From the NCBI RefSeq assembly GCF_003334315.1, contig NZ_QOWR01000032.1: a stretch of 50,212 nucleotides of DNA. One strand, written 5' to 3'. This document shows positions 1,692-41,912 of this stretch, piece after piece. Under the pieces are notes generated by a model. It saw nothing but the letters and a program-made list of their open reading frames with translations. It ran no database searches and was not told the origin of the DNA. Made by a program: the position numbers and the translations under genes. Positions within the stretch are counted from its first letter, which is position 1; every line of letters begins with the position of its first letter. The DNA comes from Escherichia coli. GTDB taxonomy: Bacteria > Pseudomonadota > Gammaproteobacteria > Enterobacterales > Enterobacteriaceae.

Positions 1692-1768
1692 TGGTGCGTC
1701 CGAGTGGACTCGAACCACCGACCCCCACCATGTCAAGGTGGTGCTCTAACCAACTGAGCTACGGACGC
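1692..1768 (-). tRNA. tRNA-Val (anticodon GAC), 77 nt, distal copy of tandem pair
   Basis: Reverse complement reads GCGTCCGTAGCTCAGTTGGTTAGAGCACCACCTTGACATGGTGGGGGTCGGTGGTTCGAGTCCACTCGGACGCACCA: cloverleaf with GAC in the anticodon loop and 3' CCA. Corresponds to the valV/valW pair of K-12. Confidence 0.9.
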
Positions 1769-1772
1769 AGGA

Positions 1773-1849
1773 TGGTGCGTTCAATTGGACTCGAACCAAC
1801 GACCCCCACCATGTCAAGGTGGTGCTCTAACCAACTGAGCTATGAACGC
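1773..1849 (-). tRNA. tRNA-Val (anticodon GAC), 77 nt, proximal copy of tandem pair
   Basis: Reverse complement reads GCGTTCATAGCTCAGTTGGTTAGAGCACCACCTTGACATGGTGGGGGTCGTTGGTTCGAGTCCAATTGAACGCACCA; differs from the other copy only by compensatory changes in acceptor and T stems. Confidence 0.9.
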
Positions 1850-2156
1850 AACGTTGTAGGTGACAACGGGGACGAATATTAGCGGCAGAGTGGGAAGGTG
1901 GCAAGAGGCAAAACGTAATTTTCTGCGCTATTTCGACCGTTTGCAGAGCTTTTAAGCAAATTGGCTATATTTTGTTGATTTGCAAGGGCGATTTTTATTC
2001 AGGATCGCATTTACATCTGATACAACCCAATAATTCGTGTATCAGAGTTTAAACAGAGTTGTTTGCCACCATCTCAAATCTGTCGTGGATAAATCCTCCG
2101 TAGCCTTTACACTTAGGTAGCAATAAAGGCACACAGATGCAGCAAAGGAATAAATC

Positions 2157-3413
2157 ATGGGATCTGATGCGAAAAACTTGATGAGCGACGGGAATGTGCA
2201 AATTGTTAAGACCGGCGAGGTCATTGGCGCGACGCAACTTACTGAAGGCGAGTTGATTGTTGAAGCTGGCGGAAGAGCCGAAAATACCGTGGTCACGGGG
2301 GCTGGCTGGTTGAAAGTGGCAACCGGTGGGATCGCCAAATGCACACAGTACGGTAACAATGGCACGCTATCGGTCAGCGACGGTGCCATTGCCACAGATA
2401 TTGTTCAGTCCGAGGGAGGCGCAATTAGTCTCTCTACGCTCGCTACGGTTAATGGCCGCCATCCCGAAGGTGAATTCAGCGTTGATAAAGGTTATGCCTG
2501 CGGTTTGTTGCTGGAAAATGGCGGTAACCTGCGTGTACTGGAAGGCCATCGCGCGGAAAAAATCATTCTCGATCAAGAGGGCGGCCTGTTGGTTAATGGG
2601 ACAACCTCAGCGGTCGTGGTAGATGAAGGTGGTGAATTGTTGGTGTATCCAGGTGGGGAAGCCAGCAATTGTGAGATTAATCAGGGCGGCGTTTTTATGC
2701 TGGCCGGGAAAGCCAGTGATACGTTGCTTGCTGGTGGCACCATGAATAATCTCGGTGGTGAAGACTCTGACACTATTGTTGAGAATGGATCCATTTATCG
2801 TCTGGGGACGGATGGCCTTCAGCTCTACAGTTCCGGTAAGACGCAAAACCTGTCCGTGAATGTGGGTGGTCGGGCTGAAGTGCATGCCGGTACGCTGGAA
2901 AATGCGGTAATACAAGGTGGAACAGTGATCCTGTTGTCACCCACCAGCGCGGACGAAAATTTTGTCGTAGAGGAAGATCGCGCACCGGTTGAACTGACCG
3001 GGAGTGTTGCATTACTGGACGGCGCTTCAATGATTATTGGTTATGGCGCAGAGCTGCAACAATCAACGATTACTGTACAGCAGGGCGGTGTGTTGATTCT
3101 CGACGGCAGTACGGTAAAAGGTGACAGTGTCACTTTCAGTGTTGGTAACATCAATCTGAATGGCGGAAAACTGTGGCTGATCACTGGTGCGGCAACGCAT
3201 GTGCAACTGAAAGTGAAACGCCTGCGCGGAGAGGGAGCGATTTGCCTGCAAACCAGTGCGAAAGAAATTTCACCTGACTTCATCAATGTGAAAGGGGAAG
3301 TTACCGGTGATATACACGTTGAGATAACAGATGCCAGTCGGCAAACTCTGTGTAACGCACTGAAACTACAGCCAGACGAAGACGGGATTGGCGCAACGCT
3401 CCAGCCTGCGTAA
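2157..3413 (+). CDS. ydhQ: YdhQ, autotransporter-passenger-like / adhesin-related protein (418 aa)
   Basis: ORF 418 aa MGSDAKNLMSDGNVQIVKTGEV..., Gly/Thr/Val-rich repeats typical of beta-helical passenger domains; length matches K-12 YdhQ. Confidence 0.85.
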   Translation: MGSDAKNLMSDGNVQIVKTGEVIGATQLTEGELIVEAGGRAENTVVTGAGWLKVATGGIAKCTQYGNNGTLSVSDGAIATDIVQSEGGAISLSTLATVNGRHPEGEFSVDKGYACGLLLENGGNLRVLEGHRAEKIILDQEGGLLVNGTTSAVVVDEGGELLVYPGGEASNCEINQGGVFMLAGKASDTLLAGGTMNNLGGEDSDTIVENGSIYRLGTDGLQLYSSGKTQNLSVNVGGRAEVHAGTLENAVIQGGTVILLSPTSADENFVVEEDRAPVELTGSVALLDGASMIIGYGAELQQSTITVQQGGVLILDGSTVKGDSVTFSVGNINLNGGKLWLITGAATHVQLKVKRLRGEGAICLQTSAKEISPDFINVKGEVTGDIHVEITDASRQTLCNALKLQPDEDGIGATLQPA

Positions 3414-3419
3414 AAATAC

Positions 3420-3453
3420 AGGCGCAACCCGTGAAGGTTGCGCCTTGTCTTTA

Positions 3454-3455
<2 letters not shown>
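3420..3455. terminator. Bidirectional rho-independent terminator between convergent ydhQ and mdtK
   Basis: GGCGCAACC-CGTGAA-GGTTGCGCC stem-loop (3421..3444) followed by TTGTCTTTATT on the plus strand and preceded by TAAAAATACA (T-run for minus-strand reading). Confidence 0.6.

Positions 3456-4848
<1,393 letters not shown>

Positions 4849-39215: not shown

Positions 39216-41912
<2,697 letters not shown>

Follow-up and report, generated by a model that had tools for sequence, protein, structure and literature searches.

What a protein built like the passenger of an autotransporter does in a cell from which it has no evident way out is the question raised by ydhQ, a gene in a 50,212-nucleotide stretch of Escherichia coli DNA (contig NZ_QOWR01000032.1 of assembly GCF_003334315.1; this whole stretch is referred to as the window). 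The ydhQ open reading frame (ORF) occupies positions 2157..3413 on the + strand and encodes 418 amino acids followed by a stop codon, with the N-terminus MGSDAKNLMSDGNVQ. An earlier reading of the letters without database searches (the sequence-only reading) had described a passenger-like ORF of 418 residues here, and its coordinates and N-terminus hold. The product is a single right-handed beta-helix without a signal peptide and without a membrane anchor, and, as a passenger fragment without export parts that is kept by selection, it has probably acquired an intracellular role linked to stress. The gene, its homology to Ag43 and its missing leader are already known from databases and papers. 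In RefSeq, the gene carries the name ydhQ and the product description 'AIDA repeat-containing protein', and the NCBIfam YdhQ equivalog (NF007409 / PRK09945) matches residues 1-418 of 418 with 942.9 bits against a cut-off of 830, which places the product in this family. The ydhQ region shows 100% identity to that of E. coli HS30-1 and 99.2% to that of K-12, and the protein shows two residue differences from K-12 YdhQ. What the present analysis adds is explicit proof of the absence of a barrel, the position of the truncation within the autochaperone domain, the colinearity with YejO, the genus-specific insertion, the uniform purifying selection and the sigma-32-like promoter.

Repeats, domains and predicted fold of YdhQ

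YdhQ is composed of 15.3% Gly, 10.5% Leu, 9.1% Val, 8.1% Ala and 7.9% Thr. Residues 9-211 (2181..2789, + strand) contain AIDA/Ag43-type strand-loop-strand rungs of about 19 residues, recognised by Pfam PF16168, TIGR04415, the Ag43 model and phmmer. The Pfam AIDA family PF16168 matches this segment with E=2e-22 and weaker copies with 1e-4 and 6e-4, the TIGR04415 strand-loop-strand repeat is found with E=3e-11 (43 bits against a cut-off of 30), and NCBIfam shows partial matches to the Ag43 passenger (model positions 249-442) and to the AIDA-I passenger. The same segment includes an Ag43-like beta-hairpin insertion (GEFSVDKGYACGLLLENGGNLRVLEGH). In residues 1-220, a periodicity of 17-19 residues (also 36 and 54) exceeds that of all 200 shuffles, and no tandem repeats were found at the DNA level in the ydhQ coding sequence. 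The repeats are old and visible at the protein level only. Having tandem strand-loop-strand rungs, each about 19 residues long, that fit the profiles, YdhQ belongs to the repeat family of AIDA-I and the self-associating autotransporters (SAATs).

The C-terminal half shows two further elements: an acidic loop, SADENFVVEED, at residues 264-274 (2946..2978, + strand), which is kept in all orthologues, and a truncated pertactin/autochaperone domain at residues 329-403 (3141..3365, + strand), which matches Pfam PF03212 with E=4e-5 over model positions 1-78 of 121. The AlphaFold2 model, built from 19 sequences, has a mean predicted local distance difference test score (pLDDT) of 91.2 and a predicted template modelling score (pTM) of 0.87. 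It contains one beta-helix spanning residues 3-417 and closed by two short strands at 402-417, and its sole disordered stretch, the only segment with a pLDDT <50, is the acidic loop. A Foldseek search of the model against the Protein Data Bank (PDB) retrieves Ag43, TibA and Ag43b (E 2e-12 to 9e-10), then IgA1 protease and pertactin. By sequence, phmmer against the PDB finds the best matches in Ag43 variants and TibA (E 1e-25 to 3e-13), with YdhQ residues 26-214 aligned to residues 202-393 of the Ag43 chains. The homology to the alpha-domain of Ag43 (Flu) and to TibA, both SAATs, covers roughly their middle 190 residues, while the C-terminal half of YdhQ is different. The passenger-like beta-helical nature of YdhQ is thereby established. 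The sequence-only reading had proposed a beta-helical adhesin passenger, to be checked by profile and structure comparison; sequence, profile and fold evidence fully support it, as AIDA/Ag43-type profiles match and the predicted fold is beta-helical.

Export parts absent from YdhQ

Both Ag43 and TibA undergo export, are anchored by a barrel of their own and bring about cell-cell aggregation, whereas YdhQ lacks the parts needed for export. No signal peptide was found in it: the maximal Kyte-Doolittle hydropathy over 10 residues is 1.19 within residues 1-70, whereas nine homologous autotransporters with a leader give 2.3-2.9, and SignalP 6 is also reported as negative (PMC13101318). The N-terminus has an acidic, polar character, no Cys occurs before position 62, and neither a lipobox nor a twin-arginine (RR) motif is present in the protein, which shows no segment of transmembrane grade anywhere. 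At the other end, the PF03797 beta-barrel gives no match in YdhQ even at E<=10, while the positive controls YejO (P0103) and P0114 are detected in the same scan with E=1e-35 and E=2e-42, respectively. The C-terminus (...LQPA) is without an aromatic beta-signal. In the alignment with full-length relatives (A1), YdhQ breaks off partway through the autochaperone domain, before the FTL(A/G)N...VD(V/I)GTYEY hairpin, and it has neither the Pro-rich spacer, nor the linker helix, nor the W-S-F-ending barrel of these relatives. Of the pertactin-type autochaperone domain, YdhQ thus covers the first 78 of 121 positions and lacks the terminal hairpin of true autotransporters (FTLAN...VDVGTYEY).

No RTX or other secretion-signal family was detected in YdhQ by the Pfam and NCBIfam scans, and the gene is flanked by two tRNA-Val genes and mdtK, so that it does not look like a substrate of an RTX-type type I system either. 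The tRNA genes, valV and valW, are two tRNA-Val(GAC) genes found by ARAGORN in the upstream flank (1692..1849, - strand). mdtK (3454..4827, - strand), which is convergent with ydhQ, encodes a multidrug and toxic compound extrusion (MATE) efflux pump, as indicated by its ORF, the RefSeq annotation and Pfam MatE in orthologous loci. MdtK is not a protein translocator, and no neighbour of ydhQ is one. The sequence-only reading was right to find neither a signal peptide, nor a C-terminal barrel, nor an adjacent translocator gene, and none of the three outcomes that it had named as contrary to it (a signal peptide, a transporter domain or a non-beta-helical predicted fold) occurred.

A wrongly annotated start or a recoding extension might hide a leader or a barrel, given that autotransporter leaders can be atypical, for example in having an extended signal peptide region, and that YcgV shows only a marginal SignalP score (PMC13101318). 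The ends of the gene leave this explanation practically no likelihood. An in-frame TAA at 2151-2153, two codons 5' of the ydhQ ATG, shuts the frame upstream, therefore no longer YdhQ N-terminus is possible and an alternative upstream start is ruled out; all three upstream frames are full of stops. A Shine-Dalgarno sequence, AAGGA, is located at 2145..2149 (+ strand), 7 nt before the ATG, and is invariant in all six aligned Escherichia loci, and every orthologue begins MGSDAKNL. Downstream, the stops of ydhQ and mdtK are only 40 nt apart, and this gap is taken up by a GC-rich inverted repeat at 3420..3445, which the terminator scan identifies as an intrinsic terminator for both strands (10-11 pairs plus T runs), common to the convergent ydhQ and mdtK. 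Both the N- and the C-terminus are kept in all orthologues. Hidden coding remnants of a leader or a barrel were also sought in 1850-2200 and 3380-3470 by tblastn with 114 autotransporter queries, and this candidate was rejected, as only chance hits were obtained (best E=0.07).

YdhQ is therefore a protein without leader, last autochaperone hairpin, helical linker or barrel, and it cannot secrete itself. Among the parts that define a type Va autotransporter, it has the beta-helical passenger domain, and it has no Sec signal peptide, no helical linker with a 12-stranded barrel and no complete autochaperone domain; because barrel and linker are absent, it falls outside the definition of this type. 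The same protein was described in 2026 in a display-toolkit study as a 'leaderless autotransporter YdhQ' (PMC13101318), and that study agrees with the present analysis on the missing predicted leader and on the cytosolic location of the leaderless form. It treats YdhQ as an autotransporter anchor, however, whereas the domain, alignment and structure tests presented here show no barrel or linker.

Origin of ydhQ and its retention in Escherichia

Among the closest known systems is YejO, an AIDA-I-type type Va autotransporter of 863 amino acids. Protein P0103 was identified as the product of E. coli yejO by its ccmFGH-narP context and a 100% DNA match, and BLASTP shows residues 2-392 of YdhQ to be colinear with its residues 72-486 (28% identity, E=6e-27). 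YejO contains AIDA repeats, then a complete PF03212 domain (positions 2-120) and then the PF03797 barrel; the order of repeats and pertactin/autochaperone domain is the same in YdhQ, but YdhQ is without the leader, the complete autochaperone domain, the linker helix and the barrel that YejO possesses. A cluster search over 1.84 billion representatives shows one full-length YdhQ-type cluster, the other hits being fragments of it or autotransporters of 600-6000 amino acids. The colinearity with YejO and the domain content show ydhQ to be an old paralogue of a YejO/Ag43-type passenger. A defence-system or phage origin was considered and rejected: PADLOC gives no match to YdhQ, and PHROGs gives only repeat families of unknown function, with no tail-function family that would mark a phage tailspike or anti-phage protein.

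The comparison with other genera shows where the gene arrived. The loci of Salmonella (L007) and Enterobacter (L008) can be aligned with the window as far as about 1924 and a second time from about 3452 onwards; in both genera, a spacer of about 150 nt without ydhQ lies between mdtK and the two tRNA-Val genes that follow it. ydhQ is therefore contained in an Escherichia-specific insert of about 1.5 kb (1925..3450), which lies between the valVW promoter region and the 3' end of mdtK and consists of the ydhQ upstream region, the coding sequence and the terminator. The two tRNA genes and their promoter-like site (1904-1876, - strand), the latter found in the promoter scan, are conserved with Salmonella and Enterobacter. 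The distribution of ydhQ was inferred from complete E. coli genomes, named database members and the cluster search, the exact-peptide contig scan (one locus) being uninformative. The ydhQ region is present at >=80% coverage in 5420 of the 5426 complete E. coli genomes, and all the named YdhQ members in the database belong to Escherichia or Shigella. Orthologues of 418 amino acids occupy the same place (ydhR, two tRNA-Val genes, ydhQ, mdtK) in E. albertii, E. marmotae and Escherichia sp. E4742, and a 419-residue orthologue with 71% identity shows the same upstream tRNA flank.

It has to be asked whether what was kept in this way is a functionless relic of a once complete autotransporter, still transcribed and translated and heading for loss. 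In favour of this, both ends of the parental architecture are gone and the protein breaks off within the autochaperone domain, deletion of the gene is not known to cause a phenotype in the laboratory, pseudogenes are frequent among the other autotransporter genes of K-12 (the paralogue yejO among them), and a few E. coli entries are shortened to 370-402 amino acids. The relic reading is contradicted by the pattern of substitution. By the pairwise Nei-Gojobori method among Escherichia lineages, the ratio of nonsynonymous to synonymous substitution rates (dN/dS) of ydhQ is 0.06-0.13 at dS 0.7-3, compared with 0.015-0.02 for mdtK and 0.06-0.09 for ydhR by the same method. It is about 0.1 in all lineage pairs and in every region including both termini, with 0.07-0.16 by quarter of the gene and 0.085 in its last 39 codons. 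The six lineages show six intact ORFs of 418-419 amino acids with no frameshift, the gene is near-universal in E. coli, and the ribosome-binding site and start codon are kept. None of the marks of a pseudogene or decaying fragment (dN/dS near 1, frameshifts, variable length) is found. YdhQ is thus fast-evolving yet under clear purifying selection over its whole length, which excludes a decaying remnant and makes a functionless relic highly improbable. The 'remnant passenger' of the sequence-only reading stands as to origin, since YdhQ is colinear with the YejO passenger and stops mid-autochaperone, and fails if decay was meant, given dN/dS of about 0.1 and conserved length and synteny. YdhQ is passenger-derived, was acquired by the ancestor of Escherichia and is maintained by selection; as it is kept at 418 residues under purifying selection, the protein must do something useful.

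The shortened entries are rare single-member variants (P0003, P0007-P0009, P0012, P0014 and P0015; 370-402 amino acids at 100% query coverage), which could represent the in-frame loss of one or two rungs of the beta-helix or be assembly artefacts. yejO is covered at >=80% in only 4282 of the 5426 E. coli genomes and is less well conserved than the export-less ydhQ; in E. coli 23AR0885 (L012 550-3141) it is annotated as a pseudogene with an internal stop. The valV-valW pair is a genomic-island hot spot. It adjoins SPI-2-type type III secretion genes in Salmonella (L007 7523-7686) and a type VI secretion cluster in Enterobacter (L008 7528-7685), and in Escherichia ydhQ is on the opposite (mdtK) side of these tRNAs. 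Elsewhere, the window begins inside an IS1 element (1-453; InsB ORF 61-438, with the terminal inverted repeat ending near 453), which here truncates ydhS, a gene that is intact and encodes 534 amino acids in K-12 and HS30-1. The rsxC ORF (39216-41342, - strand, 708 amino acids) shows four to five tandem units of about 32 residues in its C-terminal half.

Expression, location and probable role

A sigma-32 promoter-like site, TTTAAA-N13-CACCATCT, is located at 2048..2074 on the + strand, 83-109 nt 5' of the ydhQ start codon, with 11 of 13 positions matching. Both strands of the 50-kb window (100 kb) were scanned with TTGAAA-N12-16-CCCCATNT at a threshold of >=11/13 matches, and only two sites reach it in 100 kb, the one at ydhQ being in the correct orientation for this gene. 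The second, GTGAAA-N15-CCCCAGGT at 41683-41711 (- strand), is inside the rsxB coding sequence and is most likely due to chance. The -10 block of the ydhQ site, CC(A/T)CCAT(A/C)T, is kept in three Escherichia lineages; E. albertii and the P0018 locus have a degraded form of it. In the literature, ydhQ is included in a RegulonDB-derived list of the RpoH regulon (PMC2710865) and is up under misfolding stress together with dnaJ, grpE, lon, ycjX and yhdN (PMC2868799). This literature and the motif found here point to transcription of ydhQ at least partly from a sigma-32 heat-shock promoter.

A block of about 50 nt at 1941-1990 (TTTGCAGAGCTTTTAAGCAAATTGGCTATATTTTGTTGATTTGCAAGGGCG), between valW and ydhQ, is near-invariant in six Escherichia lineages, including the one with 71% protein identity, is absent from Salmonella and Enterobacter, and could be a regulatory site. 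A site for FlhDC has reportedly been found for ydhQ by systematic evolution of ligands by exponential enrichment (SELEX), its peak lying in this same spacer, and CsrA is said to target ydhQ, as a prediction in the literature only. A structured 5' untranslated region or CsrA-type hairpins were dropped as candidates, the RNA folding of 2081-2175 (z=+0.25) being no better than that of shuffles.

The protein is made: YdhQ has been measured in proteomes of whole cells (PMC6561319), purified together with EF-Tu (PMC2672614) and captured in an RNA-interactome study (bioRxiv 10.1101/2023.07.03.547468). Leaderless reporter-YdhQ fusions are fluorescent and cytoplasmic (PMC13101318). According to the literature, YdhQ is hence expressed, cytosolic without a leader and co-regulated with the sigma-32 regulon. 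The 'different localisation route' that the sequence-only reading had considered is unsupported, since no feature of an export route was found and the leaderless fusions are cytosolic.

The arrangement that best accounts for these observations starts from the central part of an AIDA-I/Ag43-type type Va passenger, from which ydhQ descends and which corresponds to YejO residues ~89-503 in the colinear alignment. The copied part comprises the 19-residue rungs together with the first two thirds of the autochaperone domain; it arrived within the insert of about 1.5 kb that separates mdtK from valVW, in an ancestor of the genus Escherichia, and has been kept at 418 amino acids. YdhQ is made in the cell and, to go by the literature, stays cytoplasmic, where it has probably been taken over as a binding or scaffold protein tied to the cytoplasmic stress (proteostasis) response. 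The adhesion effects reported for ydhQ would then be indirect.

Several points weigh against an intracellular, stress-linked role. No molecular activity or partner of YdhQ is known, and EF-Tu co-purification and RNA-binding capture are common background signals. The -35 of the putative ydhQ sigma-32 promoter is not conserved in other Escherichia species. ydhQ deletions are routine as neutral controls or integration sites (PMC6962156; bioRxiv 10.1101/2023.03.28.534373), therefore any function is subtle under laboratory conditions. The net charge of YdhQ (-26) and its five Cys are within the range of exported passengers; the idea that an acidic beta-helix of this kind mimics DNA was rejected as without support, the charge of -26 falling within that of exported passenger segments (median -12, minimum -60 per 418 amino acids). 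The fusion of a foreign leader to YdhQ raised reporter activity, which was scored as surface display (PMC13101318), and this leaves room for an extracytoplasmic role. Also pointing outwards are a requirement for ydhQ in early adhesion, given by a secondary source that cites Roux 2005 (PMC9110714), and the place of YdhQ within a COG (clusters of orthologous groups) group seen in vesicle proteomes (PMC10458587).

The last three points would be expected if YdhQ reached the envelope or surface non-classically and acted there as an adhesin-like factor, by lysis or vesicle release, by piggy-backing on Ag43 or YejO through self-association of the beta-helix, or by an unrecognised secretion signal. 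Residues 26-214 share homology with the part of Ag43 that self-associates, and positively selected sites are reported for ydhQ, as for surface proteins (PMC9110714). Such export is nevertheless unlikely in the face of a protein without leader, lipobox, Tat motif, transmembrane segment, barrel, secretion-signal family or adjacent transporter gene, of a leaderless fusion that stayed cytoplasmic, and of a sigma-32 control that points to a cytoplasmic rather than an envelope role. The claim of surface display is unproven mechanistically, because the study contains no test of protease accessibility and leaves the absence of the barrel undiscussed (PMC13101318).

The preferred reading therefore stays that of a passenger fragment, kept by selection and taken over inside the cell. 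A more specific proposal, which we regard as possible but tentative, is that YdhQ is the first documented type V passenger beta-helix with an intracellular job: a cytoplasmic beta-solenoid, confined to the genus and induced by heat shock, with a binding partner in the cell. The candidates are misfolded or nascent beta-rich proteins, autotransporter passengers before export, and nucleic acid or ribosome-associated factors, for which its co-purification with EF-Tu and its capture in the RNA interactome give a hint.

As to practice, surveys of genomes, lists of virulence factors and studies of positive selection should not class YdhQ with the autotransporters or adhesins; its use as an 'anchor' in display kits first needs a demonstration of outer-membrane attachment, and users of ydhQ deletions as neutral controls should consider that the gene is conserved and listed in a stress regulon. 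Autotransporter passengers are thought to fold only after export, by means of the autochaperone domain at the cell surface. In YdhQ, a beta-helix of the passenger type folds and endures in the cytoplasm, and selection has preserved it through the whole history of Escherichia; if the intracellular heat-shock-linked role is true, adhesin scaffolds can be recycled for cytoplasmic functions.

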